From: a virus
Lineage: Duplodnaviria > Caudoviricetes
Length of the DNA: 40,924 bases
Strand: one strand, 5' to 3'
IMG/VR virus record: IMGVR_UViG_3300032092_000077
Coordinates: 1-40,924 of that record
The position numbers and the translations under genes are program-made. This document shows positions 1 through 40,924 of the stretch, piece by piece (position 1 is the first letter of the stretch; each line of letters begins with the position of its first letter). The notes under the pieces are model-generated. The model was not told the DNA's origin. It worked only from the letters and a program-made list of their open reading frames with translations, and did not search any database.

Positions 1-127
1 TACCCATGCACACAACTCTTTGCGGTGCGAACGCACGGAGCAAGCGTCCACACGGCTAAGATAGACTGGCAAGGCGGTACTCTCTACTGGCTGCCGAATG
101 TGACCATCGCAGCGGTATTGCCGAACG
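1..127. repeat. Terminal direct repeat, identical to 40798-40924 (likely assembly overlap of a circular genome)
   Basis: First 127 nt match the last 127 nt exactly; 127 is a common assembler k-mer. The repeat lies inside the duplicated cassette C. Confidence 0.9.
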
Positions 128-179
128 GGGGAGTGGAGCTACCGCGTCCTACGCGGTTAGCTCCCACGACTGGTTCGCA
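120..179 (-). mobile_element. attC site 6 (belongs to cassette E, 126-496)
   Basis: Minus strand: TGCGAAC-CAGTC-GTGGGAGC-TAACCGCGT-AGG-ACGCGGTA-GCTCCAC-TCCCCC-GTTCGGC. R''/L''/L'/R' boxes, 5 and 6 nt spacers, extrahelical bases on the left arm. Confidence 0.9.
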
Positions 180-197
180 ACTGAATAAGGAGAAACC

Positions 198-503
198 ATG
201 ACAACACCTGAAACGTGGATGAACGAAGCCCGGCAAATCGCCGCCCAATGCTGGTGCGACGAGGAAACCAAAAACACCGCGATGGACCCGGTGCTGGCGG
301 AAGCGGTGGCCAAAAGAATCGCGGCGTGGATGGATACCGGGGCACAAGCACAACGGAACTGCGACTACTATCGCGGCCTCGTCGTGCGCTGCGGAAACGC
401 ACTCGGAGAAGCGGCCAAGACCTGTGACGACGGCAGCAAGAGTGAAGATGTGCTCTGCGCCAAAGTGCCAGAACTCGTAGAGGCGCTTGTTGCGAACAGG
501 TAA
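198..503 (+). CDS. Cassette E hypothetical protein (101 aa)
   Basis: AAGGAG RBS; ATGA overlap with the upstream cassette ORF; stop codon (AAC AGG TAA) lies beyond the crossover, in attI. Confidence 0.85.
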   Translation: MTTPETWMNEARQIAAQCWCDEETKNTAMDPVLAEAVAKRIAAWMDTGAQAQRNCDYYRGLVVRCGNALGEAAKTCDDGSKSEDVLCAKVPELVEALVANR

Positions 504-540
504 TTCAATGAACCACGTTGGGTTAATTCCACGTCTCAAA
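489..540 (-). mobile_element. Putative attI site (crossover at 496/497), overlapping the intI start
   Basis: GTTGCGAAC (489-497) is the reverse complement of GTTCGCAAC (173-181), closing cassette E. No attC hairpin follows; instead AT-rich short repeats GGT(T)AATTC and CCACGT. Right boundary is approximate. Confidence 0.7.
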
Positions 541-1464
541 CAGGCACTGGCAGAGCAAAGCTGCGGGCGCAACACCGTAGCGACTTACTGCTTTTGGGCG
601 GGCAAGCTGTACCGGTTTACCGGCAAACCGGCGTCGCAGTGGACCGGCAAGGATGTACAGGCGTGGTTGTGGTCATTGCATCAAGCCGACTACTCGGCCT
701 CCTCCCGCAAACAAGCGCTCTGCGCCGCGGCGTTCATTTTCAAACACGTTGTGAAGGTGGATATGGGGCGCCTTGAACTGCCGCCGTTGCCAGTGATCCG
801 CCAGACGCTGCGCACCGTGCCGACCCGCGAAGAAATCGGCAGGATCCTGAGCAGTTTGCGCGGGCAGGTCAAGCTGATGGCGGGCCTGCTGTATGGCGCG
901 GGCTTGCGCGTTCACGAATGTTGCACCTTGCGGGTTCAGGATCTCGACTTCGACCACCTTACGGTGCGCGTCGTGGCCGGCAAGGGCGACAAGTCGCGGC
1001 TGCCCCCGCTGCCCTCCTTGTTGGTGCCCGCTTTGCAACGACACTTGGCGGCGCGGCGCGCCCAGCACGACCTTGATCTGGCCAACGGCCACGGCCTGGT
1101 TCAGTTGCCCGGGCGGCTGGCGATCAAGTACCCCGCCGCCTCGCGCGAGTTTCGCTGGCAGTATCTGTTCCCCTCCACGCTGGTCCGCGGCCAGTACCGC
1201 TGGCACGCCACGGCAGAATCGGTTGGCAAACAGATGCGCGCCGCTTGTGGCGCGGCGGGGATCACCCGGCGCGTCACGCCGCACACGCTCCGTCACGCCT
1301 TTGCCACGCACGGCCTGGCGCTGGGAAACGATATCAAGACCGTCCAGGAACAACTTGGCCATGAAAGCATCGAGACCACGGCGATTTATCTGCACAAGGT
1401 CAGCGCCTGTGGCCTGAGTCCGCTTGACGCCAGCCCCCTGCGTCGCGAGGTCCTGCCGGTATGA
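508..1464 (+). CDS. intI: Integron integrase (IntI-type tyrosine recombinase)
   Basis: SASSRKQALCA, LLYGAGLR, GKGDKSR, the IntI-specific insertion (DLANGHGLVQLPGRLAIKYP...WQYLFPS), HTLRHAFATH, LGHESIETTAIY. ATG 508 preferred over TTG 487. Confidence 0.92.
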   Translation: MNHVGLIPRLKQALAEQSCGRNTVATYCFWAGKLYRFTGKPASQWTGKDVQAWLWSLHQADYSASSRKQALCAAAFIFKHVVKVDMGRLELPPLPVIRQTLRTVPTREEIGRILSSLRGQVKLMAGLLYGAGLRVHECCTLRVQDLDFDHLTVRVVAGKGDKSRLPPLPSLLVPALQRHLAARRAQHDLDLANGHGLVQLPGRLAIKYPAASREFRWQYLFPSTLVRGQYRWHATAESVGKQMRAACGAAGITRRVTPHTLRHAFATHGLALGNDIKTVQEQLGHESIETTAIYLHKVSACGLSPLDASPLRREVLPV

Positions 1465-1475
1465 GCGCCGCGCCC

Positions 1476-2597
1476 TCAATCCGGCACGGCCATCAACGTT
1501 GCCCGTCGCCGCTCGTCGGCCACCTTGGCGTACACCCGCACCATGTCGAGCGCGGCGTGGCCCATCAGGTCTTGGAGTGTCGCCAGCTCGTTGGGATGCG
1601 CCTCCAGGAACCGCGTGGCGAACGTGTGCCGCAAGTGGTGGAAAAACACCCGGCGGCGGCCCGTCACCTGGCGAAGCAGGGAGCAAAATGTCTGGCTGAA
1701 CTCGTTGAACCCCTCGGCGGTCGGCTCGCCAAACCAGTACACGGGATCCACGGGGGGGTAGGCCCGCAACGCCGCCTCCACCCGCGGGTGCATCGGCATG
1801 GTCCGGTCCTTGGCGTTCTTTTCCCGCAACACCAGCTGGCGCTGGCCAAAGTCCACATCGGCCACGCGCAAGCTGAGCACGCCCTCGCGCCGCGCCCCGC
1901 AATAGAGTGCCAGGCAAGCCGCGGCGGACAGGCGCGGGTTGCCGGCCAGTGTCGCCAGCAACCGGTTTTTTTCGTCCTCGGTCAACGGCTTGGGCGTGCC
2001 CTTGCCCACCCGCGGCCGCTTGATCGCCTTGGCGGGGTCAAAGGTCAACGGCCGATTGGCGGGGGGCACCCAGTAGCCCTCGGCAATCGCCCAGGCAAAC
2101 GCCGCCCGCAACTGGGTCAGCTCGCCGTACATGGTTTTGTTGACGCGCCGCTCGATCTCCCGCTCGTCGGCCTCGCCGCGGGCCGCCCGCGTTTTGAGCT
2201 CGGTCTCGCGCCCGACTTTGTACCGGCGCAACAGGTCCTCGCTGAGATCGGCAAACGCCGTCGCCCCGAGCTGGTCCCGCAACCAGCGCACCCAGGCCGC
2301 CACGTAACTCTTGTAGCGGGCCGCGCTCTTGGGGTCGAGCTCGCTGGCCTTCACCGCCAGCCAACGGTCAAACACCTCGGCCACGCCCAGCACGGTTACC
2401 GGCAACGCGCTCTTGCGGGCCCGCTTGATCTCGCGGGTCTTTTGCTTGGCCAGGTCGCGGGCCTGGGCGCACGGCTTGGCGTGGCCCGTGCAACCGCAAT
2501 GCACCTTGGTTTCGACGATCTTGCCCGCCGCGTCGCGGTACTTCACCCGGCACACCGCGTTGGCCGTGTTCTTGTAAGCTACCCGTGCAAATGCCAT
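1476..2597 (-). CDS. int: Phage integrase (tyrosine recombinase)
   Basis: ALYCGARREG, KNAKDR, HHLRHTFAT, LMGH...VY catalytic motifs; AAGGAGG RBS before ATG 2597; basic N-terminal arm-binding-like region. Confidence 0.9.
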   Translation of the reverse strand: MAFARVAYKNTANAVCRVKYRDAAGKIVETKVHCGCTGHAKPCAQARDLAKQKTREIKRARKSALPVTVLGVAEVFDRWLAVKASELDPKSAARYKSYVAAWVRWLRDQLGATAFADLSEDLLRRYKVGRETELKTRAARGEADEREIERRVNKTMYGELTQLRAAFAWAIAEGYWVPPANRPLTFDPAKAIKRPRVGKGTPKPLTEDEKNRLLATLAGNPRLSAAACLALYCGARREGVLSLRVADVDFGQRQLVLREKNAKDRTMPMHPRVEAALRAYPPVDPVYWFGEPTAEGFNEFSQTFCSLLRQVTGRRRVFFHHLRHTFATRFLEAHPNELATLQDLMGHAALDMVRVYAKVADERRRATLMAVPD

Positions 2598-2699
2598 GTC
2601 AGTTTCCTCCTTGAGTTTTTGTCGGCGGTCCGTATGTTCGGCGCCCATGAATCGAGCCCACCGCCCGCAACTGAGCAACGCTGCTCTGCCGTCCGTTTC

Positions 2700-2865
2700 T
2701 TGTCACCTTTCCCGTCACCTTTTTTGTCACTCCAGCGTTGTTTTCGGCTGCTCGCCTGTGCTCGTTCATGCCCGTTAAATAAGCCCAAGTGCACGGCAGC
2801 GCAAGCACAATCGGGAGACGGTAGCTCTTTTTTTCGTGCGGGTGTCACCCGTTTTGTCACCTTTT
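2700..2865. other. Putative attP with arm-type direct repeats
   Basis: (T/C)GTCAC(C/T) repeats at 12-bp period at 2701, 2713, 2725 and at 2843, 2855, flanking about 110 bp of non-coding core next to int. Confidence 0.6.
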
Positions 2866-2950
2866 GGCGGGCACGGTGTCCGCTGAATCCCTCGGGGCTT
2901 CTGCCCGGGGTGGGTCTGGTAACCAACCAACACACAGGAGAAATGTAGTC

Positions 2951-4363: not shown

Positions 4364-4545
4364 GGCGCTCACCGGCGGCGTTGCAGGCGGAACGGGCGGC
4401 GCGCCTGGCGGATGCGGCGCGCTGGACCCAGGCCGCCCGCGTGGCGCTGGCTCGCGGGCTGGTCGAGGCGGCGAGTGCCGCCCTGGCCGCCGCGGGCCGC
4501 GCGCTGGCGGGCCTGCGCGCCACTTACCAGGGTCATCAACCATGA
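4360..4545 (+). CDS. Hypothetical Ala-rich protein
   Basis: GTGA and ATGA overlaps with both neighbours. Confidence 0.65.
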   Translation: MRRSPAALQAERAARLADAARWTQAARVALARGLVEAASAALAAAGRALAGLRATYQGHQP

Positions 4546-5330
4546 ATCAGGCGTTTATGGCGGAACGGGCCGCGGAGCTGGTCGAGCTCCTGGGCGGCTG
4601 TTGCGACCGGCTGGAAGTGGCGGGCTCGTTGCGCCGCCAGGCGGCCGACGTGGGCGATGTGGAGCTGGTGGCGGTGCCGCACCTGGCGCCGTCGCCTTAC
4701 GCGGGCGATCTGTTCGGCGGGAGCGGAGTGGCCGGCAAGATTGATTACCTGGCCGAGAAACTGCGCGAGCTCAAAGGGCGGGGCGTGTTGCGGGACCGGC
4801 CCGATAAGCACGGGCGGCCCGCCTGGGGCGAAAAGTTCGTGCGGGCATTGTACGGGGACCGGCCCGCGGTGGCCGTGGACTTGTTCATCGTGCGGCCCCC
4901 GGCCACCTGGGGCGTGATCCTGTTTATTCGCACGGGGCCCGCGGAGTACGTCAAGGCGGCCATGGGCCGATTGCTGGAGCGCGGGCTGAGCTGCGCCGAG
5001 GGGCGGATCGTCAACCACGCGGGCGTGCCGCAACCCACGCCCGAGGAGGCCGACGTGTTCGCGTTGCTGGGCTGGGAGCCCAAGGATCCCGCCGAGCGTG
5101 GCCGGCAACGGCCGCGGGCCACGGCACTGGAGTTGCCCCCGCAAGCGCCGCCCACGGCCGCGGTGTCCACGCGTCTGGACGACCCGCTGCCGGCCGCCCC
5201 GCCGCCGCGGCCACGGGCACGGGGTTGCCCGCCCCATGACTGGCACGGGGAACTGGCCGAGGCCGAGCCGGGCTGCTGGCGGCCCACCTGTACGCGCTGC
5301 GGCGAGACCATGGAGTCGCGGGTCGGATGA
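4542..5330 (+). CDS. DNA polymerase X-family / Pol-beta-like nucleotidyltransferase with Cys/His-rich C-terminus
   Basis: AGSLRR...GDVELV, VDLFIV, LFIRTGPAEY, EEADVFALLG...P..R motifs; C-terminal CPPH...CTRC. Confidence 0.85.
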   Translation: MNQAFMAERAAELVELLGGCCDRLEVAGSLRRQAADVGDVELVAVPHLAPSPYAGDLFGGSGVAGKIDYLAEKLRELKGRGVLRDRPDKHGRPAWGEKFVRALYGDRPAVAVDLFIVRPPATWGVILFIRTGPAEYVKAAMGRLLERGLSCAEGRIVNHAGVPQPTPEEADVFALLGWEPKDPAERGRQRPRATALELPPQAPPTAAVSTRLDDPLPAAPPPRPRARGCPPHDWHGELAEAEPGCWRPTCTRCGETMESRVG

Positions 5331-5710
5331 GCCCCGTCACAAGGAGGAAAGCCGTGGGGACCCCGCAACCGCACTGGACCGCGGCCCGGCTCCGCCAATA
5401 TCGGCGGCAGCTGGCCGCGCTCAACGACCGGGGACCGTACCCGGTGATCAACCTGGCGCGGGCGGCCGCCCGTGAAGTGCCGCTCAGTGAAGCGGCCCAC
5501 GGGGCGGCGGCGGCGGCGCTGCCCCATCCGCCCGCCAACGCGCTCGATGCGCTCAGCGCGGCGGAGTTTGTGGTCTGGTGCGCCCGCACGGCCGCCGATC
5601 GCGGCCTGCGGGCTTTGAGCAACAGCGAGCTGGCCCGCGTGCTCAAGGTCAGCGAAGCGCGGGTGCGCCAGCTCCACGCCAGCGCGGCCGGCAAACTGCC
5701 CGCGCCGTGA
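5327..5710 (+). CDS. Sigma-70 region 4-like HTH protein
   Basis: C-terminal SNSELARVLKVSEARVRQLHASAAGKL fits the sigma70 r4 pattern; ATGA overlap. Confidence 0.7.
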   Translation: MSPVTRRKAVGTPQPHWTAARLRQYRRQLAALNDRGPYPVINLARAAAREVPLSEAAHGAAAAALPHPPANALDALSAAEFVVWCARTAADRGLRALSNSELARVLKVSEARVRQLHASAAGKLPAP

Positions 5711-5717
5711 GTCGTGA

Positions 5718-8700
5718 TTACGGGGCGGTGAGCTCGGCCCCGAGGCGGGCGCGGGCCTGGGCCGCGGCGGTGGCATCCAACCGGCGCACGTACTCTTTGA
5801 TCTGGGCGCGGGTGTAGCCTTGCTGGCGCAGCGTGGCGATGTTGACCTGACCGAGGATCTCCTGGCGGGCCTGGCCCAGGGCCCGGTTCCACTCCCGCCG
5901 TTGGCGCCAGGTCAAGTCCGCCGGCGCGACACCCGCCACGGGCGCGCGCGGGCCGCGGTAGGTCAGCAGCTCGTTGGCGCTGAGTAGCTGGTGGACGGGA
6001 TCCTGCGTCAGACTGGTAAACGGCAGGGGCACGCCACTGACCGCGGGCACGGGCGCGCTGGTGTGAGTCCCCAGTTGCCAGTAGCGGACTTCGGGCTGGC
6101 CCGTGGTGGGGCTGGGCTCGTCGGGCAACAGGTAGGAGATCCCGGGCAACCGCGCGCCCAGGCCGCGTTGCGGCCGGGGATTGATCACGCTTTCCATCGC
6201 GCCCAGCAACGCCTGGCCCGGCACCAACCGGTTGAGCGTGTTGCTGGCCTCGGCCAGCACGGCATGGGTGCTGCCTTGTTGGGCGGCCAGCTTGACGCTG
6301 GTAAACAGGCTGCCCAGCAACCCGCCCGCCTCGCCGCGGCCGGCCAGCAACGCCTGCGCAAACGGCAGGCTGGCATACCGGGACAACCCGATCACGGCGG
6401 GCCGGTCGCCGCGCAACAAGCTTACCAGGAACAGCGCCGTGGACAGCGGCTCCACCCGCAACGACACGCGCACGCCGTCCGCGCCCACCCAGTCGCCGCT
6501 CTGGTAGTCCACATGGCCGCGGTCCTTGTCCTCATCGGGCGCGTCGCTGGGCGCAAACAGGGCATGGACCAACAGCAACCCGCCGATGCCCGTGGCGGTG
6601 CGGGTCAGGTAAGCGGCGATCTGCTCGGGCGTGGCCCGGCCGTCGCGCACGGCCCGCCAAAGGCGGGGATTGATCCCCACCATCTGCCCCGCCCACCGGG
6701 CCAGCTGGAACGGCCAGCGTCCAAAGGGAGTCACCAGCAAACGGAAAAACGTGTTGCGGGCAATTCGTTCCTCGACCGGGCTCAATGCACGGTTGAACCC
6801 CGCGGCGTTGCCGGCCGCGATGGCCGTCTCGATGGCGTGCGCGGGCGGGTCGGCCACGTATTGCTCGATGTAGTCCTGCGCGGCCGCGCCGCGCAACCCG
6901 TGACGGTCGGCGCTGGTGCGCGCCTCCTGGTAGAGCGCCGCCATGGCGGCCAGCCGTTTGGCGGCCAGGTCCGCCGCGCCCTTGGCGTAGAGCGGCGTGC
7001 CCACCAGCGCGTCGAGGCTCTTGCCGGCCCAGGTGCGGCGGGTGCTGAACGTGCCGCGGTCGCCCGTGGGGAACGCGCCCGCGCTGGGCGCGCCCAGAAT
7101 GTCGGTCTCGCCGCTGACGGTCCGGCCAAACGCTTCCTCCAGCCGCGCATCGAGTGGACGGCGGGCATGGCTGGCGCGGTGGCGCAGCGCGGCGACAAAG
7201 GCCGACGTGGCCGGCAAGCTCAACCGGCCCGTGCGCAGCGCGTGGACCAGGTCGTAGCCCGCGCCCTCGATGCGCTGGGCGGCCAGCTCGGCGGCGTTGG
7301 CGACAATGTCCAGCGAAAAGCTCGTGACCGAAAACAAGTTGAGCCGCCAGGCATCCACCAGGTACCGGCCCAGCTCGCGCGCGCCCTGCTCATCCAACTG
7401 GTGCACCTGGGCCAGCCGCGTGGCGATGGCGTTGTAGATGGGCTCGCGCACATGCGCGGCAATGTCGCCCGCCAACAGGTTGGCCAGCGCGGCCCGCTTA
7501 CCGGGATTGGTCTCCTGCTGGATCTTGGCGGCCCGGTCCCGCACCACGGCGGCCAGGGTCTCGTCGTAGGCGGGCAACCCGAGCTTGTCCTGCAAGGCGG
7601 TGTAGGCCGCCTCGGTGTCGAGCGCGCCCAGTGCGCTGGCCCGGAGCAACCGCTCCCCGGCGCTGCGCACGGCCCGCTTGACCTTGCCCTGCTGGGCCTG
7701 GCCGATCACGCGGGCCAACTCCCGCTGCTTGACGGCGGCCGTCTCCGCCTGCATGGCGGCGGCCACGTCCTGGGCCAGCTGGGCGGCCTGCAATTCGCCC
7801 AGGCCCGCTTGCGCGGCCAGCTTGGCGGCCAACGCCGCGGCGGTGGCGTCCGCGGTGGTGTAATGCTCATAGACCAACTGGCGGAGCTGGGCGCCGCGCT
7901 TGACGATCGCCGCGGCCGCCGCCGCGCGCAACGCGGGGCTGCCGGCCGCCAGGTACTGGGCCAACGGATCCTTGGCTTGTCGGGCCTGGCTGGCGCGCTC
8001 GGCCACGGGCGCCGCCGCCCTGGCATTGGCCTGCTCCAGGTTGCGCAACAGCCCGGCAATCAACGCCTGGTCGGCGCTGGGCAACCGCTGGCCGCGGGCC
8101 TTGGCCACTTGGCGCTGGGCGAACACTTCCCAACCTTCGGGAGTCAGGTACTGGAGCTGGTCCCAGGCGAACAGCTTGCGGGCATTGCTGACGGCGCGGC
8201 CCGTGGTCTCAAAGTAATCGGTGAGCCAAGAAAGCAGCTCGGCATGGTTGCGGCCCACCTGGGCGGCGCCGCGCCGATCGCCGTCGCGGGTCAGCTTGTT
8301 GTACCTTTCTTGGAGCAGGCGCCCGAGTTGGATCGCGGCCTCGGTGCGGACGTCGGGCGCGAGCTGGTTGGCCGTGTTGGTCACTTCCCGGTAGGCCTGC
8401 TCGACGCCGCCAACGCTGTTGATCCAGGCCGACGCCTCGCGGGCCATGGCATCGTCGCCTTTGACGGTGTAGCGCCGCTCGCCCTCGATGCGGGCGCGGC
8501 TGTGCGGGTCTACCTGGTTGTCGGGCTGGTCCAGGATCCGCCCCGCCAGCTTGTGCTCGCGGGTGCGGGAGAAACGAATGTCGGGGCGGTTTGGGTTGAA
8601 GCGTTCTGAGAGCGGAATTACTCGCCCTGCATCATCGCGAGTGATGGCGTCGGCGAGTTTGACATGCGCCGCACTGGTGGCGACGTGTACTTCGTGGCCC

Positions 8701-11700
8701 GGTCGTCCCCACGCATCGGTTTCGAGAATGCCGGTCTTGCCGGTAACCCTGTACACGGCTTGGTAGGTCAGCTCTGGGTCAGACCCGCCGTTGATCAAGC
8801 CCGCGACGAATGATGCATCATCTTGGGAATAGTTGGCCAAGTTGTTGGCGGCTTCCTCGATGACTGAAGGCAGTCCTTGATACGAAATATCGCCATAGTT
8901 CCACAGCGGGCTTGATCCTTCTTCGGCGGTTTCGGCTTCACTGTGAAGCACGCGCAGGATTTGCTTGATTTGCCGACGCGTGATTGTGAGACGCCGCGGG
9001 TCAAGCTGTTTGCCGCCGCGCAGATAAACTCGAAGAAGCCGCTCGCCGTGGCGCTCGGCATAACCTTTGGCCAGCGCTTCGTCATTGGTGAAGTAAAAGC
9101 CTTTGCCCTCGGTGGTGCCCTGGGCGCCCATCTTTCCCCAGTCGAAGACAGTGAATCCACCAGCACCGCCGTGCCACACGGGTCCAATCGTGAATCCTGC
9201 CTTGCGTGCAGCCGCGTCTACCATTTGCTGCGCTGTCGCTGTGTCGCCACGTTCAACAGCCGCCAAATATTGGCGGTCTTCCGCGGCTGTCACAGTGGCC
9301 CGCGATAGCCGCAGATCGCGGCGCTCGGTGTTGTCCCCTGAAAAGTGCTCGCGGGTGCGGGAGAGCGGCAAATCGAGTTGGCTGGGTTGCGGGGGCGGTT
9401 GCGGGGTTTGGTCGCCGCTGCCGCTCTCACGATTTACCAGGCGGAACCGCTCACCGGCAAAGGGGTCTTGCATCAACGCGGCCGCCTCGGCCGCGGACAC
9501 CGCCGCGCGCTGGTACGGGCCGCCGAGTCCGCGAATCTGTTCCTCGCTGAAACCGCGTTGTTGCATGTCCTGCACCGCCTGGGCGCGGGTGAGCGCGACA
9601 CCGCCCCAGTTGATCTTCTCGGCCATGAAGTCGTCGGCCAGATTGCGGCGGCGCGAAAGCATGACGCCCGGCGCGGTCAACGTGGCGTTACCGGCATGGA
9701 ACACACCCGCCTGGGCAGCGTCGCCTGCCTGCGTGCCCAGCGTGGCCAGGGCCTCGGTGGCGGCGGTGCGGACCCGCTCCAGGTTGGCGATGGTGTCGCT
9801 GGCGCGGCGGCGGAGCGTCCAACGGCTGCCGAGGGCCTGCAAACTGCGCTCCAACACGTCCAGCAACGTCTGCAACAGGTCGCGCACGGGCCCGGGAGCG
9901 CGCGCGGCCAGCCGCTGCCAGAAACCGGCATCGGCGGCCAGCTCGCCCACCAGCTCGGGGATAAACTCGTCGCGGGCCTCGGCGGCGCTGGCGGCGGGCA
10001 GGTCCGGCCCAAACTGGTCGTTGAATCGCGCCAGCCAGGCCTGCACGCGGGCGGGGTCGGCTTCCTGGAGGATCACCCGCACCAGCTCATTCCAAACGCG
10101 CGGGTTGGCTTGTTTCAGCCGATGCGTGGCCTCGTGGGTCACAGTCGACAACACGGGGTCGGCAAGTTCCACTGACAACCCGATGACGTTGGTACCCGGC
10201 AACTGCAGCCCGTTAATGCGCGGGCCGGTGCCGGTGCGCTCCAGCCAAACTACGCGCAGCCCGAGGGCTTGGGCGACGGCGTCAACGGTGCGGGCGACGG
10301 GGTGCTCGGTACTGACACGGGCTGGCCGGTAAACACGTTCACCACCAGGGCGTCCGAGGCGCATCTGCAAACGATCAGCGAGTTGGCCGGCGAGGGCTTC
10401 ATCGTGCTGGGCGGTGCCGGGAGCGTAACGCTGCGTGGGGCGGGCGGTTTCATCGCCCACAATCTCGCCCGCCAACGGGTGGGAGTCAAGACCGGAGTCG
10501 GCCTGTTGCGCCCGTGAAAACGGCACTGCCTCTTCGCTCTTTGCGGCGGTTTCTTCCCGCTCCACTTCCGCCTGCCAGTCGCGTTCTTCGGCGCGGCGCT
10601 CGGCGTCGGCCTCCAGTGCGTCCGCCGTGCCGTGATAGGCCGTGGGATAGTAAAAGCGCTGGCCGCGAAGCTCTTCATCGAGCGCGTTGTACAGGTCCGC
10701 GGGCGTGCTGCCCGCGGGCAGGAAACCCGCCTCGACGGCGGCCTCGACGTGGCTATCGGGCGCGTTGGCGGGCCGATTGGCCCGGTCAATCAACCCGCGC
10801 CGCTTGGCCAGCGAGTCCTGTCCCGCTACCAGCTGGGCAAAATCGGCGGCCATCTGCACCGGCCCGCCATCGGGCTTGGCCAGCGCGATGCCGCCCCGGC
10901 CGCGGACAAACTGGGTCAACGTCGTCGCGCCCGCCACGGGAGTGGCCACGGCGGCCGGCCGCGGGGGCGCGGCCACGGGCGCGTTGGGATCCCCGTTGCT
11001 GACCAGCAACGTGGCCAACTCGGCGGGGTCAACGGCCACGGGGGCGACGGCGGGGCGGGCCTCGGCCAGGGCGGCGGCGTCCAACTCGCGGGGCGCGGCG
11101 CCGTCGCGATCGGCCACGATGCTGGCCGTGGTCCGTCGGGCGTGCTCGTCGTTGAGGGCCTGGATCGTGGTCTCATTGGCCACGGCGAACTGGCGGCGGG
11201 TCTGGCCGCTGGCGGGGTCGCGGCGTAGTTTGTGCCAGGTGCCCTCGGCGTCGCGTTCGTACAGGTCCTGCTGCCAGGTCAGCAACGGCACGGGGCCCGC
11301 CAGGCGGGCGCGCAACTCGGCCAACCGAGCGGCGGCGGCGGGGTCGGCCACGGGAGCCGCGCCCAGGTCCTGGGCGGCCGTACCGGCTGCGTCGGACGTG
11401 GGAGTGAGTGTCGCAACTACAACGTCAGCGACGGGCGGCACTGTGCCGCCGCGGTCGGCGCCTGTTCCTGTGACGCGGGCATCTTCCGTGGTGGCGAAAA
11501 CTGCGGGGGCATTGGCCCCCGTGCTGCTCGCGGCGGCGCGGCTGTGCGCGGCGTTGATCGCAGCCAAAAATTCGGCATCGGTCCAGTCGTTCTCGGCGCG
11601 GGCCTGCAACAGGTCGGCCACGGCGGACGGGTCGGCGGCATCGAGCGCCGCCAACTGCGCAAAGGCCGCGGGCAACGGGTCCACCGCGCTGGCGGCGGCG

Positions 11701-12767
11701 GGGCGGGCGGCGGGCGCGGCGGGGCGGGCCGCGGCCGGCACGGGCGGGGGCGTGGCGGCGCGCTGGGTGCGGGCATAGCTGACGGGCAAGCCCAGCGCGG
11801 CAAACACGGTCGAGGCCGCTGCCGCGGGGCCCATCATTTGCTGGACGCGGTCCCACAAGGGCGGCGTGGGCACGTCGGCGGCCCGGTCCGCGCCCCACTG
11901 GCCCGCCTCGGTCACCAGCTCCTCGATGAACTCGGTCACGCCGATCCCCGCGCTGCGGGCGCTGGCCTGCAACGCGCGGCCCAGCCACGTTTTGACGGGA
12001 CGGGTCAGGGCGGCCATGGGTCGGCCCAAACCCGCCAGCTTTAATTGCAGCACATCGCTGACGGCTTCCACGCCGCCCTCGATCAGGCCTTGGGACAAGG
12101 CGTATTGCTGGCGGGCGTCCCCCGTCAAGGTGGCGGGGGCCGTCTCGCGGCTGCGGTCGTAGGTGCTGGCACCAAACAGGGCGCCCGCGACGGCGGCCGG
12201 GTTGCCCGTGGCCGCGCCCAGGCCCATGGCCGCCAGCGACGGCGTGGCCGTGCGGATGCCTTGTTGCAAGAAAGAAACCACGCCCGTGGCGGGGGCCTGG
12301 GGCAACGCGCGGGCCTCGGCGGCGCGCGCCTTGGCTTGCCAGTTGTCCTCCCACCACGATTGCCCGGGCAAACGGACCTGGGCCGCGGCCGGCCAGGCGG
12401 GCGGGCGCAGCGCGTCGTAATACGACGCCCCGGGCACGGTCCACGTCAAACCCTGGCGGGCCATGGACGGCGCACCGGCCAGGCCGCGCGCCACCAGCGC
12501 CATGGTGTCCAGGCCCGCGCCCTGCAACGTGCTGGGCCAATCGGCCGCCACGGGCGCCGCGGGGGCGGGTCCCGACGTCTGGACGGGCGCCGCGCTGTGG
12601 GCGGCGGCGGTCAGGGCGGGCAGGGGGGCCGCGGCCGCGGGCCACGCGGGGCGTTGCCGGGCGGCGGCGAAAATCTCATCGAGGTCGGCGGTGGTGGGGG
12701 GCGCCGCGCCGTCCCAGTCGAGTTGGAAGCGTTGGCCTGTGTGTTGGTCGGTGACGGCGTAACGCAT
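5718..12767 (-). CDS. Large polyvalent / internal virion (ejection) protein, 2349 aa, with zincin-like HExxH and ADP-ribosyltransferase-like domains
   Basis: Last gene of the late operon; VTHEATH motif; VWHGG...GKGFYFT...VYLR ART-like motifs; IPLSERFN...DIRFSR linker typical of phage polyvalent proteins. Confidence 0.75.
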   Translation of the reverse strand: MRYAVTDQHTGQRFQLDWDGAAPPTTADLDEIFAAARQRPAWPAAAAPLPALTAAAHSAAPVQTSGPAPAAPVAADWPSTLQGAGLDTMALVARGLAGAPSMARQGLTWTVPGASYYDALRPPAWPAAAQVRLPGQSWWEDNWQAKARAAEARALPQAPATGVVSFLQQGIRTATPSLAAMGLGAATGNPAAVAGALFGASTYDRSRETAPATLTGDARQQYALSQGLIEGGVEAVSDVLQLKLAGLGRPMAALTRPVKTWLGRALQASARSAGIGVTEFIEELVTEAGQWGADRAADVPTPPLWDRVQQMMGPAAAASTVFAALGLPVSYARTQRAATPPPVPAAARPAAPAARPAAASAVDPLPAAFAQLAALDAADPSAVADLLQARAENDWTDAEFLAAINAAHSRAAASSTGANAPAVFATTEDARVTGTGADRGGTVPPVADVVVATLTPTSDAAGTAAQDLGAAPVADPAAAARLAELRARLAGPVPLLTWQQDLYERDAEGTWHKLRRDPASGQTRRQFAVANETTIQALNDEHARRTTASIVADRDGAAPRELDAAALAEARPAVAPVAVDPAELATLLVSNGDPNAPVAAPPRPAAVATPVAGATTLTQFVRGRGGIALAKPDGGPVQMAADFAQLVAGQDSLAKRRGLIDRANRPANAPDSHVEAAVEAGFLPAGSTPADLYNALDEELRGQRFYYPTAYHGTADALEADAERRAEERDWQAEVEREETAAKSEEAVPFSRAQQADSGLDSHPLAGEIVGDETARPTQRYAPGTAQHDEALAGQLADRLQMRLGRPGGERVYRPARVSTEHPVARTVDAVAQALGLRVVWLERTGTGPRINGLQLPGTNVIGLSVELADPVLSTVTHEATHRLKQANPRVWNELVRVILQEADPARVQAWLARFNDQFGPDLPAASAAEARDEFIPELVGELAADAGFWQRLAARAPGPVRDLLQTLLDVLERSLQALGSRWTLRRRASDTIANLERVRTAATEALATLGTQAGDAAQAGVFHAGNATLTAPGVMLSRRRNLADDFMAEKINWGGVALTRAQAVQDMQQRGFSEEQIRGLGGPYQRAAVSAAEAAALMQDPFAGERFRLVNRESGSGDQTPQPPPQPSQLDLPLSRTREHFSGDNTERRDLRLSRATVTAAEDRQYLAAVERGDTATAQQMVDAAARKAGFTIGPVWHGGAGGFTVFDWGKMGAQGTTEGKGFYFTNDEALAKGYAERHGERLLRVYLRGGKQLDPRRLTITRRQIKQILRVLHSEAETAEEGSSPLWNYGDISYQGLPSVIEEAANNLANYSQDDASFVAGLINGGSDPELTYQAVYRVTGKTGILETDAWGRPGHEVHVATSAAHVKLADAITRDDAGRVIPLSERFNPNRPDIRFSRTREHKLAGRILDQPDNQVDPHSRARIEGERRYTVKGDDAMAREASAWINSVGGVEQAYREVTNTANQLAPDVRTEAAIQLGRLLQERYNKLTRDGDRRGAAQVGRNHAELLSWLTDYFETTGRAVSNARKLFAWDQLQYLTPEGWEVFAQRQVAKARGQRLPSADQALIAGLLRNLEQANARAAAPVAERASQARQAKDPLAQYLAAGSPALRAAAAAAIVKRGAQLRQLVYEHYTTADATAAALAAKLAAQAGLGELQAAQLAQDVAAAMQAETAAVKQRELARVIGQAQQGKVKRAVRSAGERLLRASALGALDTEAAYTALQDKLGLPAYDETLAAVVRDRAAKIQQETNPGKRAALANLLAGDIAAHVREPIYNAIATRLAQVHQLDEQGARELGRYLVDAWRLNLFSVTSFSLDIVANAAELAAQRIEGAGYDLVHALRTGRLSLPATSAFVAALRHRASHARRPLDARLEEAFGRTVSGETDILGAPSAGAFPTGDRGTFSTRRTWAGKSLDALVGTPLYAKGAADLAAKRLAAMAALYQEARTSADRHGLRGAAAQDYIEQYVADPPAHAIETAIAAGNAAGFNRALSPVEERIARNTFFRLLVTPFGRWPFQLARWAGQMVGINPRLWRAVRDGRATPEQIAAYLTRTATGIGGLLLVHALFAPSDAPDEDKDRGHVDYQSGDWVGADGVRVSLRVEPLSTALFLVSLLRGDRPAVIGLSRYASLPFAQALLAGRGEAGGLLGSLFTSVKLAAQQGSTHAVLAEASNTLNRLVPGQALLGAMESVINPRPQRGLGARLPGISYLLPDEPSPTTGQPEVRYWQLGTHTSAPVPAVSGVPLPFTSLTQDPVHQLLSANELLTYRGPRAPVAGVAPADLTWRQRREWNRALGQARQEILGQVNIATLRQQGYTRAQIKEYVRRLDATAAAQARARLGAELTAP
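8553..9364. repeat. 20-bp direct repeat pair GTGCTCGCGGGTGCGGGAGA (8553-8572 and 9345-9364) flanking the ART-like domain
   Basis: Exact match, 792 bp (264 codons) apart; both encode SRTREH on the minus strand. Confidence 0.9.
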
Positions 12768-27545: not shown

Positions 27546-27621
27546 TGGATGCGGGAGTCGGACTCGAACCGACGTTTCCTCGTGACTAACGAGGTATCCT
27601 GGTCCACTAGAAGATCCCGCC
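27546..27621 (-). tRNA. Atypical 76-nt tRNA, anticodon AGU, 1:72 mismatch, encoded CCA
   Basis: GGCGGGA-TC-TTCTAGTGGACCAGGAT-A-CCTCG-TTAGTCA-CGAGG-AAAC-GTCGG-TTCGAGT-CCGAC-TCCCGCA-T-CCA folds as a cloverleaf. Confidence 0.88.
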
Positions 27622-32816: not shown

Positions 32817-32977
32817 GTCAGACTGGTCGGAATCCGACCGCTCTGGTGGGTCAGACTGGTCGGAATCCGACCGCTCTGGTGGGTCAGACTGGTCGGAATC
32901 CGACCGCTCTGGTGGGTCAGACTGGTCGGAATCCGACCGCTCTGGTGGGTCAGACTGGTCGGAATCCGACCGCTCTG
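32817..32977. repeat. Tandem array, about 4.9 x 33 bp, each unit containing the palindrome GGTCGGA-A-TCCGACC
   Basis: Unit GTCAGACTGGTCGGAATCCGACCGCTCTGGTGG starts at 32817, 32850, 32883, 32916, 32949; no spacers. Confidence 0.95.
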
Positions 32978-37263: not shown

Positions 37264-37508
37264 ACACCATGAAATGCAAACGATTCAAGGGATGGGGTCC
37301 GAGCGAAGTCGTACACTTGCGCGAGTCGACCTATAGCGCGGCTTTGCGGTCATCGCACGAGCGCCCGCCCAGGTTTCTCGATTCTGACGATGAGCGCACT
37401 TTCGTTTTGGTCTTGAACGTTGGCCAATGGCGCGAGGACCTCGGGGTGTATGCGTTCAGTGAAGTGATGTTGGCTGAGTACGAAGAATGCGAGGTTCGCA
37501 CACTATGA
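37260..37508 (+). CDS. Hypothetical protein, lower GC
   Basis: ATGA overlaps at both ends. Confidence 0.65.
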   Translation: MNTMKCKRFKGWGPSEVVHLRESTYSAALRSSHERPPRFLDSDDERTFVLVLNVGQWREDLGVYAFSEVMLAEYEECEVRTL

Positions 37509-37741
37509 ACCCCGCCACCGCCACTCAATCCCCGCCGCCGTCCGTCCCGGCCGCCCCCGACCCGCTGGATGCCTCGCTCTGCCGGCAAGGCCTGCGCGAA
37601 CTGCTCCGCACCGAGGCCCGTTGCCTGGGCCACTGCAAAACGTACCGCGGCGAGATCCGCGACTCGCTGGTCCGCTATTTCACCGCCCGCCTCAAACTGA
37701 TCGCCCAAACCTATCGCCGCCAACCCCAACCAGGAGCCTAG
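37505..37741 (+). CDS. Hypothetical protein
   Basis: ATGA overlap; GAGG RBS. Confidence 0.6.
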   Translation: MNPATATQSPPPSVPAAPDPLDASLCRQGLRELLRTEARCLGHCKTYRGEIRDSLVRYFTARLKLIAQTYRRQPQPGA

Positions 37742-37748
37742 TCCCCGC

Positions 37749-38381
37749 ATGAAACCACTCACCTTGGCCGAGTTCGCCGCGCTGCCCGCGTCGGCGTCGG
37801 TCTTGTATTTCGACACCGAGACCACCGGCAAAGCCGACTGGCGCGCGCCCGCGTCCGCCCTGCACCAGCCCCGCGTGGTCCAGATCGGCGCCGAGCTGCA
37901 CCGGGCGGACACCTGCCTGGCCATGTTCCACACGCTGGTGCAACCCGCGGGCTGGACCATCCCCGCCGAGGCCACGGCCATTCACGGCATCACCGATGCC
38001 ATGTGCGCCGCCGATGGTTTGCCCGGGCTGGCCGTGCTCAACGTGTTTGTCGGCCTCCTGTTGGCGGCGGACGTGGTGGTCAGCTTCAATTTGGATTTCG
38101 ACGCGCTCATGCTGGAGATCGAGGGTCATCACCACCAGCGGCCCGACCTGTGGCGCGACGTGCGCGGGTTCTGCGCCATGCGCGCCGCCACGCCTTATTG
38201 CCGTCTGCCTGGTCATCGGCCCGGCCAATACAAATGGCCCCGCCTGGCCGAGGCCCACCAGATCCTTTGCGGCACCCCGCTGGTCGGCGCCCACGGCGCG
38301 CTGGCCGATACCCGCGGCTGCCGCAACGTCACCCAGGCGCTCTGCCAACGCCAGCGCCAGAACCTCAACCCCCAACCCTAG
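37749..38381 (+). CDS. DEDDh 3'-5' exonuclease (DnaQ-like)
   Basis: FDTETTG, IHGIT, FNLDFD, AHGALAD motifs. Confidence 0.92.
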   Translation: MKPLTLAEFAALPASASVLYFDTETTGKADWRAPASALHQPRVVQIGAELHRADTCLAMFHTLVQPAGWTIPAEATAIHGITDAMCAADGLPGLAVLNVFVGLLLAADVVVSFNLDFDALMLEIEGHHHQRPDLWRDVRGFCAMRAATPYCRLPGHRPGQYKWPRLAEAHQILCGTPLVGAHGALADTRGCRNVTQALCQRQRQNLNPQP

Positions 38382-38395
38382 AAAGGTCCCGCCCC

Positions 38396-39016
38396 ATGCC
38401 CACCATGTCCTGCCCCCGATGTTCCAAAACCATCAACAAAATCGGCAGCCACCGTCATCTCCGGTTCTGCAAGGGCCCCGGCACACCCCCGCCCGTGCCG
38501 GTCGCCGCGCCCTTGGCCGCTGCCGTCGCCGCGCTGCGCGCGCAAACCCCTGCGGATCACCGGCGCGGCATGGCCACGCTGGAGTTTGGCGCGTTCCGCC
38601 GCGAGTTCGCGTTTGCCGACCTGGCCGATCTCCGCCTCCAGCTCACCACCCTCCAGTTCGAGCTCGCCGATTCCGCGCAACTACTCGGGATCGCCGCGTC
38701 TGGTGGAGCGGCGCCCCGGCAAAACGCCGACGCCGCGCCCGCCCTTGCCGCCAGCGCGGCCCGCCCCCGCCGCACCTCGCGGATTATCCGCACCGGAAAA
38801 CCCGCCACTACATCCGCCCCATCCGTCCCATTGGCCCTATCCGTCCCCTTGGCCCCCTCCGCCTCGATCACCGAGCGCGCCCTGGCCCGCTGCGAAGCCG
38901 AGCTGGCCAACCCGCTCACCAACGACGGCCGCCGCGCCGTGCTCCGCACCGAGATCGCCACGCTCAAAACCAAGCTCGCCACCGCCGCCGCCCAGGCCGC
39001 CCGCGCCAAGGAGTAA
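38396..39016 (+). CDS. Hypothetical protein with N-terminal zinc finger
   Basis: CPRC...H...C; GAAAGG RBS. Confidence 0.65.
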   Translation: MPTMSCPRCSKTINKIGSHRHLRFCKGPGTPPPVPVAAPLAAAVAALRAQTPADHRRGMATLEFGAFRREFAFADLADLRLQLTTLQFELADSAQLLGIAASGGAAPRQNADAAPALAASAARPRRTSRIIRTGKPATTSAPSVPLALSVPLAPSASITERALARCEAELANPLTNDGRRAVLRTEIATLKTKLATAAAQAARAKE

Positions 39017-39023
39017 CCCCGCC

Positions 39024-39272
39024 ATGCCCACCACCACCGCCCCGCCCGTCCCGCCGCCGCCCACCGCGCCGCTGCTGGACGACGTCCCCTACACCCCCGC
39101 CGAGATCGCCGCCTACCATCGCGTTTCGCTCTGGACCATCCAGCGCCGCATGGCCGAAGGCCTGCTGCCGTTTTCCGCCGATGGCCGCACCAAACGCATC
39201 ACTGGCGCTCAATACAAACAGTTCCTTGCCAACACCGCCCACGGTGCCAACGAGGGAGTGCAGCGACCATGA
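39024..39272 (+). CDS. Excisionase-like HTH protein; C-terminus encoded by attC 1
   Basis: YTPAEIAAYHRVSLWTIQRRMAEGLLP...RI MerR/Xis-type pattern; AAGGAG RBS. Confidence 0.75.
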   Translation: MPTTTAPPVPPPPTAPLLDDVPYTPAEIAAYHRVSLWTIQRRMAEGLLPFSADGRTKRITGAQYKQFLANTAHGANEGVQRP

Positions 39273-39353
39273 GCCAGCCGCCCAATGCCGCAGCGAATCC
39301 AGAACCAGCCCGGCGCGGCTGGCTCATGGTTCGTCTGCACCGACTTGTTGGCC
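39245..39353 (-). mobile_element. attC site 1 (cassette A, 39251-39543)
   Basis: Minus strand: GGCCAAC-AAGTC-GGTGCAGACGAACCATGAGCCAGCCGC...GCGGCTGGCTCATGGTC-GCTGCAC-TCCCTC-GTTGGCA. Confidence 0.88.
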
Positions 39354-39607
39354 GTCTTCGTGGCGTGCTGACAAACCGATTCGACGCCCAATGGGAGGAG
39401 TTCGGACGCATGACGGATGACCAACTACTCGACGAGTTTGAGCGCCTACTCGATGCGCCAACCCACAAAGAGACTGACCGCTTTCGGCGGCTCTGCTACC
39501 GCATGGCTTTGTGCTGGTGGTCAGAGCGAAGACTGACGGCCAACGTGGGAGTGCAGCCACGGCGTCGGACGCCGTTGGCTGACACGACTGGTTCGACGGG
39601 AGAATAA
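39269..39607 (+). CDS. Cassette A hypothetical protein
   Basis: Starts inside attC 1 (ATGA overlap) and reads through attC 2. Confidence 0.75.
   Translation: MSQPPNAAANPEPARRGWLMVRLHRLVGRLRGVLTNRFDAQWEEFGRMTDDQLLDEFERLLDAPTHKETDRFRRLCYRMALCWWSERRLTANVGVQPRRRTPLADTTGSTGE
39538..39597 (-). mobile_element. attC site 2 (cassette B, 39544-39815)
   Basis: Minus strand: GTCGAAC-CAGTC-GTGTCAGC-CAACGGCGTCCGACGCCGTG-GCTGCAC-TCCCAC-GTTGGCC; 60 bp. Confidence 0.92.
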
Positions 39608-39612
39608 CGGAA

Positions 39613-39849
39613 ATGGCTGCAATCAGAACCGCCTTAATCAAACGACAGGTCGGCAGTGCCAAGCTGAAACTGGCGCTGGCGAGCATAGACCTGAACAAAG
39701 AACGGAAAACCAGACGGACGTGGCGATACATCGCCTCACGGCTCCGGGAAGCGCAACGGCTAGTCGGCGCGGCAAAATGGACTGCGGAAGCCAATGCTAT
39801 CCGCACTCCGTCGAACATGAAAGCTGACGCACGGGAGCAGAGCCGATGA
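39613..39849 (+). CDS. Cassette B hypothetical basic protein
   Basis: GGGAG RBS after attC 2; stop inside attC 3. Confidence 0.75.
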   Translation: MAAIRTALIKRQVGSAKLKLALASIDLNKERKTRRTWRYIASRLREAQRLVGAAKWTAEANAIRTPSNMKADAREQSR

Positions 39850-39915
39850 CAACGCCCATCACGATAACCGACGCCAACGGCTCTGCTCCCGTTGTCGTCC
39901 AGCGTCTGGTTCGGC
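39810..39915 (-). mobile_element. attC site 3 (cassette C, 39816-40123)
   Basis: Minus strand: GCCGAAC-CAGAC-GCTGGACG-ACAACGGGAGCAGAGCCG...CGGCTCTGCTCCCGTG-CGTCAGC-TTTCAT-GTTCGAC. Confidence 0.9.
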
Positions 39916-40145
39916 AATCCTGCGTGCCATGCCCGTACTGCGGACAAGACGTACACAACGACTGGAAACCAAACTCGGAATACGTGCTGCGATGCCCGTA
40001 CCCATGCACACAACTCTTTGCGGTGCGAACGCACGGAGCAAGCGTCCACACGGCTAAGATAGACTGGCAAGGCGGTACTCTCTACTGGCTGCCGAATGTG
40101 ACCATCGCAGCGGTATTGCCGAACGCGGAGGTCAGCCATGAGTGA
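39846..40145 (+). CDS. Cassette C zinc-ribbon protein (copy 1)
   Basis: CPYC...CPYPC; starts in attC 3 and stops in attC 4. Confidence 0.8.
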   Translation: MTTPITITDANGSAPVVVQRLVRQSCVPCPYCGQDVHNDWKPNSEYVLRCPYPCTQLFAVRTHGASVHTAKIDWQGGTLYWLPNVTIAAVLPNAEVSHE

Positions 40146-40192
40146 AGCGAGTCCGACGAGCGCAACGAATTGGCTGCACCGTCTGGTTCGGC
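40118..40192 (-). mobile_element. attC site 4 (cassette D, 40124-40614)
   Basis: Minus strand: GCCGAAC-CAGAC-GGTGCAGCCAA...TGGCTGAC-CTCCGC-GTTCGGC. Confidence 0.82.
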
Positions 40193-40329
40193 GATTCCGT
40201 TGCGCGATGGGAATGCACCACTGGAAATACACCAGCGAGCGCGGATTTCGATACCGGAACTGCACCGGCTACTGTCAACTATCGCAGTACCAAAACGACA
40301 ACCGCCAATGGAAGGAAGTGCCATTTTGA
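40138..40329 (+). CDS. Cassette D ORF1, Cys/His-rich
   Basis: GGAGGT RBS and ATG inside attC 4; C..G.H.W...C...C motif. Confidence 0.75.
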   Translation: MSEASPTSATNWLHRLVRRFRCAMGMHHWKYTSERGFRYRNCTGYCQLSQYQNDNRQWKEVPF

Positions 40330-40331
40330 CG

Positions 40332-40445
40332 ATGAGCGCCCGCAGCAAAACAGTCTCGCGATGGGTAGAATGCCTATCGGCATCGGGGTGTGTGTCAACA
40401 AAGAGTGACACCGGGAGGTTGCTCATCTCCAATCACGAAAGGTAA
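40332..40445 (+). CDS. Cassette D ORF2 (37 aa, uncertain)
   Basis: Fills the gap between ORF1 and ORF3 with 2-nt spacing at each side. Confidence 0.4.
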   Translation: MSARSKTVSRWVECLSASGCVSTKSDTGRLLISNHER

Positions 40446-40447
40446 TA

Positions 40448-40648
40448 ATGGACAAGGAACACATCTGCGCCAACTGCCAATGGTACAAACGCGACTACGG
40501 CGTGTTCACGGCTACCGGCTGGACAGGCATGGACAGGAACAAAGGCCAGTGCAACTACGAGCCGCGCCCGATACGCAAGGACGGCAAAGACTGGTGCGCT
40601 CGCTATACGCCGAACATGAAAGCTGACGCACGGGAGCAGAGCCGATGA
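40448..40648 (+). CDS. Cassette D ORF3, Cys-rich
   Basis: GAAAGG RBS; CANC...GQC...WC; stop inside attC 5. Confidence 0.75.
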   Translation: MDKEHICANCQWYKRDYGVFTATGWTGMDRNKGQCNYEPRPIRKDGKDWCARYTPNMKADAREQSR

Positions 40649-40714
40649 CAACGCCCATCACGATAACCGACGCCAACGGCTCTGCTCCCGTTGTCGTCCA
40701 GCGTCTGGTTCGGC
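40609..40714 (-). mobile_element. attC site 5 (second copy of cassette C, 40615-40922)
   Basis: Identical to attC 3 except in the R' box (GTTCGGC vs GTTCGAC). Confidence 0.9.
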
Positions 40715-40924
40715 AATCCTGCGTGCCATGCCCGTACTGCGGACAAGACGTACACAACGACTGGAAACCAAACTCGGAATACGTGCTGCGATGCCCGTAC
40801 CCATGCACACAACTCTTTGCGGTGCGAACGCACGGAGCAAGCGTCCACACGGCTAAGATAGACTGGCAAGGCGGTACTCTCTACTGGCTGCCGAATGTGA
40901 CCATCGCAGCGGTATTGCCGAACG
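40645..40924 (+). CDS. Cassette C zinc-ribbon protein (copy 2), continuing across the circular junction to a TGA at 199-201
   Basis: Identical to copy 1 up to ...LPN, then GGVELPRPTRLAPTTGSQLNKEKP through attC 6. Confidence 0.75.
   Translation, partial: MTTPITITDANGSAPVVVQRLVRQSCVPCPYCGQDVHNDWKPNSEYVLRCPYPCTQLFAVRTHGASVHTAKIDWQGGTLYWLPNVTIAAVLPN

Follow-up and report, generated by a model that had tools for sequence, protein, structure and literature searches.

A probable complete integron with inverted, frame-coupled cassettes at the end of a phage early gene run

The integron locus and its recombination sites

The DNA analysed here, the 40,924-nt window formed by IMG/VR virus record IMGVR_UViG_3300032092_000077, closes into a circle of 40,797 bp, the other 127 nt being a terminal repeat (positions 40798–40924 equal 1–127); the record is classed as a virus with direct terminal repeats. 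Across the point of closure lies an array in the order xis, cassettes A, B, C, D/E, C and F, intI. It ends a plus-strand gene run that leads from about 33950 through genes for DnaB and an exonuclease, and its intI meets the phage integrase gene int tail to tail. We consider it likely that this array is a complete phage integron whose cassettes are inverted, and that the phage's own integron integrase (IntI) inserts, copies and excises them, a fixed reading frame keeping them translated in any order. The original prediction, a complete integron embedded in a phage early operon, holds as a layout, but it overlooked both the inversion of the genes relative to their attC sites and the frame-locked design.

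By its matches to PHROGs and NCBIfam families (terminase, portal, podovirus-type major capsid, tail fibre, ParB, DnaB, exonuclease, an excisionase-like gene and a tyrosine integrase), the genome is that of a temperate, podovirus-like tailed phage. The plus-strand run into the array is putatively termed an early operon, after its gene content. No plus-strand terminator-like sites stood out between 33000 and 40924, where counts were at chance level.

Six hairpins with attC anatomy had been predicted on the minus strand, and all six were recovered at the same positions. Each has R and L boxes, an unpaired spacer and extrahelical bases, with a single strand for all sites; their lengths are heterogeneous (60–109 bp), and folding of the bottom-strand DNA gave z-scores of −7.4, −3.1, −4.8, −1.7, −6.5 and −3.3. 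The sites were scored with a covariance model (CM) that was built from 30 short attC sites (rule-scanner finds in bacterial contigs and the host-type integrons of two reference phages) and is distinct from the IntegronFinder model; its training alignment covaries, with 87% of cells paired versus 28–40% when slid. On this model of largely bacterial sites, the six hairpins took ranks 1–6 of 16 matches in the window, five of them at 25.7–41.2 bits, with the seventh match at 11.3 bits. The distal site is weak (15.3 bits, E 0.18) and was missed by the rule scanner, which made six matches at the other five sites (one on both strands) versus 0–1 in 200 shuffles of the array, and whose strand calls match the annotated gene strand in reference integrons. 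The ends of each cassette are complementary exactly as first quoted, over 10, 9, 10, 8, 10 and 9 nt versus 3–7 nt for non-cognate pairings, and the cognate pairing gives the longest end complement in 6/6 rows. A bulge base that looked unusual (bottom-strand C) was dropped as a candidate novelty, as both forms occur in class 1 sites. The count of six cassettes also stands, with the amendment that only five are distinct (39812–40125 is identical to 40611–40924) and that one carries more than one open reading frame (ORF).

The predicted IntI-type integrase is well supported by alignment with IntI1 and the Vibrio enzyme, in which it keeps all six catalytic residues (R134, K159, H259, R262, H285 and Y294) and the IntI-specific insertion. 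Its best match in the PDB is 2a3v (E 2e-52), 14 close homologues align over the full length with a mean column identity of 73%, and TIGR02249 is the best of 11 families, at 256.8 bits for a cut-off of 265 (one member of the clade scores 278). The attI-like site that had been placed at about 497 is likewise identified in the sequence: its motif is conserved throughout the aligned clade members (Table 1), it adjoins the 5′ end of intI, and it shares a 9-nt complement with the attC of the first cassette. The second half of the motif forms the first codons of intI in this phage, and it is possible that IntI bound at attI would cover its own first codons and so regulate itself. In this subclade the intI start is shifted into the conserved attI motif, and sequences P0002–P0008 also begin MN. 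No match was found to two LexA-box patterns, and a low-powered scan (0.2 sites expected) found no sigma-70-like site as a Pc promoter in 1–3000; any Pc would be antisense to these cassette genes.

Table 1. Features of the integron and its borders (window coordinates)
Feature	Coordinates	Strand	Details
Excisionase-like helix–turn–helix gene (xis)	39024..39272	+	phrog_66, E 1.6e-6; last codons cross distal attC (tail NEGVQRP, then stop); stop overlaps cassette A ATG
Cassette A	39251..39543	+	293 bp; ORF 39269–39607 (112 aa), start inside own attC; 10-nt end complement
attC of cassette A	39245..39353	−	Distal, weak, atypical bulge positions; CM 15.3 bits, E 0.18; fold z −7.35
Cassette B	39544..39815	+	272 bp; ORF 39613–39849 (78 aa); 9-nt end complement
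attC of cassette B	39538..39597	−	CM 41.2 bits
Cassette C copy 1	39816..40123	+	308 bp; ORF 39846–40145 (99 aa, Cys-rich); skipped by minority joint in X3 and X9
attC of cassette C copy 1	39810..39915	−	CM 25.7 bits; other strand holds ribosome-binding motif and start codon of C gene
Cassette DE	40124..40614	+	491 bp; ORF D 40138–40329 (63 aa); linker ORF 40332–40445 (37 codons, read by eye); ORF E 40448–40648 (66 aa)
attC of cassette DE	40118..40192	−	CM 38.8 bits
Cassette C copy 2	40615..40922	+	308 bp, identical to copy 1; holds contig break and 127-nt terminal repeat; ORF stop at 201, tail unlike that of copy 1
attC of cassette C copy 2	40609..40714	−	CM 26.5 bits
Cassette F (adjoins attI)	126..496	+	371 bp; ORF 198–503 (101 aa); stop codon supplied by attI
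attC of cassette F	120..179	−	CM 36.2 bits
attI	495..526	−	Predicted crossover 496/497; motif reaches first intI codons; AACAG invariant in 16/16 aligned clade members
Integron integrase IntI	508..1464	+	318 aa; TIGR02249; co-directional with cassette genes; start 4 nt past F stop
Phage tyrosine integrase (int)	1476..2597	−	phrog_1, E 7e-46; convergent with intI; borders the integron, outside it

Inverted genes and the frame rule

The bottom strand of attC carries all cassette ORFs, which point towards intI. Wherever an ORF runs into a crossover, AAC is read there as an asparagine codon, and the receiving site then supplies the last residues of the protein (7, 21, 11, 7, 11 and 25 at the six attC sites, 2 at attI). 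The stop codon falls beside the following start. Four junctions have an ATGA overlap (one further GTGA overlap, in another frame, is excluded from this count), one has an overlap of 8 nt, and two have gaps, of 5 nt and, at the last junction, before intI itself, of 4 nt. For four of the six cassette genes the start codon lies within the gene's own attC hairpin, and the two copies of C have one core with two different tails. Since the tail is set by the receiving site alone, any order of cassettes would give closed, coupled ORFs.

Judged by sequence, the inverted design would appear to be general among phage integron loci. Of 63 model-detected sites in 22 viral loci, 56 were inverted, two canonical and five uncalled, whereas 136 clustered sites in 23 bacterial or captured integrons comprised 82 canonical, seven inverted and 47 uncalled. 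The full frame-and-coupling pattern, by which we mean an ORF of at least 50 codons that enters in frame 0, a tail of at most 30 residues and a next start close by, was present at 31 of 57 viral sites but at only one of 136 bacterial sites when the same rule scanner was applied to both. Frame 0 was used at 38 of the 57 viral sites, and nine more end on the TAA of TAAC. The site counts leave out three duplicate loci (L011, L017 and L033), a single site in L013 that does not lie upstream of its intI, and two contigs from genome bins (L081 and L111) that fall among the viral rows.

Relatives, probable cassette movement and alternative explanations

A search of viral contigs for the same layout had been suggested, and it returned inverted attC arrays with IntI in relatives: a scan with an IntI alignment found 80 loci, about 35 of them with an IntI-type protein, although a single-sequence scan had found no relative. 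Several of the relatives resemble Mu and carry transposase or transposition genes upstream, and as the window phage is podovirus-like, the module sits in unrelated backbones. The suggested IntI phylogeny placed the integrase in a clade that is almost wholly viral (15 of 16 rows; support 100/100 in IQ-TREE on 40 hand-picked rows), which FastTree recovers on 120 rows. The viral rows require at least three changes on the tree, and phages thus hold more than one IntI lineage. Cellular IntI matches in the 9/64 genome parts scanned reach at most 47% identity, except for one 2.4-kb contig (57%) nested in the viral clade; the 2/64 metagenome parts scanned gave only three close IntI loci. A separate viral locus, L161 (KX853513, Virus Rctr41k; 4680–5678), has an IntI-like gene annotated as xerD in a co-directional run of small genes, with no attC found directly upstream.

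This phylogeny bears on whether a host chromosomal integron was captured at a prophage edge, as in Vibrio and Shewanella prophages, or attached to the phage by misassembly. Captures of this kind have been described (Qi 2023, PMC9892861), the array is lower in GC than the upstream early genes (0.587 versus 0.683), and with that share of the genome parts scanned a closer cellular IntI may exist. The captured examples are, however, canonical in orientation, and the array here lies between xis and int and is fused in frame to xis. In public sequencing runs, a single unbranched unitig covers 37500–39841 at 63.7× (run X1), and one unitig spans F, attI, intI and the 3′ end of int (X2). Unitigs hence join the cassettes with xis and the phage int with intI; the chimera with host DNA against which the original prediction warned is therefore unlikely, and capture as a whole seems to us extremely improbable.

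Signs of capture and shuffling, as the original prediction proposed, are supported by the sequences: there are a duplicated cassette, cognate end complements, homologues with swapped termini and a joint at a crossover, while recombination by this IntI is a prediction. All four cassette C homologues found share its core up to the crossover asparagine and then continue into unrelated tails, and one protein joins the attC-encoded N-terminus of A to a D-like body. A homologue of F occurs in 13 viral loci, in three of which (two distinct) it lies between attC matches, with identical core ends in L168. No relatives of cassette C were found in viral contigs, and a 23-nt stretch of its attC gave no exact copy. 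In X2, another contig, of 2,458 nt, carries an attC near-identical to that at window 123–176 with 37 other loop letters that begin ATG, which suggests a local pool of such cassettes.

The search of public runs for alternative cassette orders gave a mixed outcome. A joint from 39811 to 40120 is present in X3 and X9, with a 5-nt overlap (CGAAC) inside which the predicted crossover falls; it drops one copy of C, and its depth is 5.2 (X3) and 3 (X9) versus 12.8 and 6.2 for the B–C edge. Instead of ongoing excision, this joint may reflect a sister strain. Of the public runs, X1–X3 may derive from the source sample, and none is listed as RNA. Absent cover of DE in X1 and of int in X3 was not used as evidence. 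Unitigs also break at the end of int (1478–1507) in X2, where depth passes from 38.3× to 52.5×, and near 1468 in X3, and X12 covers int and not intI; an integron-free relative sharing the backbone may exist.

Several observations weigh against a phage integron that is complete and served by its own IntI, and some of them would fit a genuine, mobile array on which the IntI of a host or helper phage acts in trans, with the phage intI a passenger or a weakened relic. The IntI of the window narrowly misses the TIGR02249 cut-off, and past the second helix its insertion lacks about six residues relative to IntI1 and the Vibrio enzyme. Four of the eight viral contigs with the clade attI motif have no adjacent intI (three without a TIGR02249 match, one with short end fragments only), which suggests that the phage's own IntI may be dispensable. 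Moreover, the 73-kb phage record L168, rated 100% complete, has at least ten inverted attC matches (474–5160) near its F homologue that obey the frame rule, and no IntI match. Movement in trans is nevertheless unlikely in our view, given the intact ORF of intI with its full catalytic set, its family of full-length homologues, and an attI that is conserved against intI. In the viral contigs L261, L264, L265 and L268 (position 3001), which have the attI motif but no adjacent intI, the motif ends a co-directional gene run, and attC lies upstream in at least two of them.

Other adverse points concern the assembly. No record spans the whole array, so the order of the two C copies is unphased; the contig also breaks inside the repeat. 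This would fit a real integron in which the duplicate of C and the closure of the circle are a collapsed repeat, drawn from a mix of one-C arrays or a separate C–DE circle. X2 points the same way, as its C unitig (64.9) is only about 1.2× the backbone (52.5) and the exit to DE (28.2) is below that to F (38.3). By contrast, C stands at about 1.7× the backbone in X1 (112.5× versus 63.7×) and X3 (23.9 versus 13.7–15), DE is at backbone depth in X3, and all four edges exist (B–C, C–DE, DE–C and C–F). We judge a collapsed repeat very unlikely, and a mix of arrays would itself point to shuffling.

The remaining points against a complete, self-served phage integron are of several kinds. The crossover joint has 25 nt on its short side at 90% likeness, comes from one study and is absent in X1, and joints with so small a short side can stem from other organisms. 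The F–intI stretch reaches about 0.7 times backbone depth in X2 and X3 (about 1 in X9), the CheckV completeness estimate is 38% despite the terminal repeat, and promoter scans located no candidate early promoter. Finally, the viral sites in the counts above are mutually non-independent, and their genes were called by a simple home-made script.

The cargo probably consists of small accessory genes. For the seven cassette ORFs, Pfam gave no match above cut-off, PADLOC recognised no family, and neither of two Atlas look-ups yielded a usable function; six of the seven were scanned against PHROGs, with one weak match to a family of unknown function. ORF E is Cys-rich and has 48 relatives. The role in host takeover or anti-defence that was first proposed is thus unsupported for this phage. 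Among 113 hand-picked genes from 18 loci in relatives, there were 12 DNA methyltransferases (in 12/18 loci), which lie in or beside the array and are not all placed between two attC sites, and three PAPS-reductase-family proteins. Given the methyltransferases, anti-restriction would fit, and anti-defence is plausible for this class of cargo.

Elsewhere in the genome, four TGTCAC repeats (at 2701, 2725, 2843 and 2855) surround the non-coding spacer between the int start and parB (2700–2862) and are likely arm sites around attP; the stretch at about 2815–2830 resembles what we take to be a tRNA 5′ end. A perfect 33-nt tandem repeat of 4.9 copies (32817–32977) lies directly 5′ of small terminase-region genes, and ARAGORN calls a possibly spurious tRNA-Thr(AGT) at 27546–27621, between portal and the next gene. 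The virion region encodes a 2,349-aa protein (5718–12767) whose sole PHROG match is to a family of unknown function. The closest genome rows are Verrucomicrobiota bins, a possible lead on the host.

Proposed mechanism, known integrons and significance

In a phage integron worked by its own IntI, cassettes and intI would be read from a phage early promoter and not from a Pc. Transcription from that promoter would have IntI made at induction or during lytic replication, when single-stranded DNA would let attC fold. Each newly captured cassette would be placed farthest from the promoter, opposite to the expression gradient of bacterial integrons. The likely history of the two C copies is a copy-and-paste reinsertion, after which F was captured; in class 1 integrons, copy-and-paste duplication of cassettes is described, with loss of the redundant copy afterwards in active integrons (Souque 2021, PMC8024014). 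If the replication fork moves with transcription, the bottom strand would, speculatively, be the lagging-strand template; the opposite placement limits excision (Loot 2017, PMC5371416).

Integrons are generally treated as bacterial devices, and the original prediction regarded them as mostly described on chromosomes, plasmids and transposons. This overlooks published phage integrons: Qi 2023 (PMC9892861) reports three complete integrons and 17 clusters of attC sites lacking integron integrases (CALINs) from 10,705 phage genomes, the three being of host type (Vibrio, Shewanella and class 1), and phage attC sites that were recombined by IntI1. The locus described here resembles those cases in combining intI, attI and attC cassettes in a tailed phage, and in the methyltransferases among its relatives' cargo. 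It differs from them in an IntI of viral clade, inverted genes and an array fused into the early operon; in four of their records that we re-examined (Va_90-11-286_p16, M16-3, P1 L-II and TJE1), the genes at detected attC sites are on the top strand.

By its predicted intI, attI and attC, the element is a member of the integron family, and not a canonical Pc-driven one. It shares with class 1 integrons the catalytic residues, the IntI insertion, an attC anatomy with the same bulge positions, and the intI–attI–array geometry, whereas its IntI is 38% identical to IntI1 and Pc-type expression is impossible for inverted genes. ORF-11 and short ORFs located in attC are earlier examples of translation coupled across a crossover (review, PMC8876359). 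Unlike in class 1, it is the cassette genes themselves that are coupled here, from the bottom strand and at every junction, intI included. The sedentary chromosomal integron of Vibrio (VchIntIA, 2a3v) is the closest structural relative by sequence and also carries small genes of unknown function, but the phage array is short and viral in location, its attC sites vary in length, its genes are inverted, and it has no match to the two LexA patterns. We found no account of inverted, phage-native integrons in the full-text literature, a search whose scope excludes subscription journals and the Qi 2023 supplements, among whose other CALINs inverted ones may occur.

What is new here is a set of backward, frame-locked cassettes, where the published phage cases look like captured host arrays. 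Such an integron offers a site-specific route for the rapid turnover of small accessory genes in the early region, beyond homologous and illegitimate recombination. That attC sites double as ribosome-binding sites, starts and stops bears on how cassettes and attC sites arise and are constrained. The genome lends itself to testing, since its array carries one cassette twice and public samples contain a candidate variant that lacks one cassette. In a broader sense, we lean modestly towards the view that phages run an integron system of their own. It would comprise IntI clades and a conserved attI that are both viral, together with backward, frame-locked cassettes that come from a common pool and plug into the early operons of unrelated phages. 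Shuffling during replication would change gene content and rewrite C-termini, and the mirrored orientation would keep two separate gene pools on one recombination chemistry. If this is true, phage cassettes would be silent in bacterial integrons, and bacterial cassettes silent in phage.

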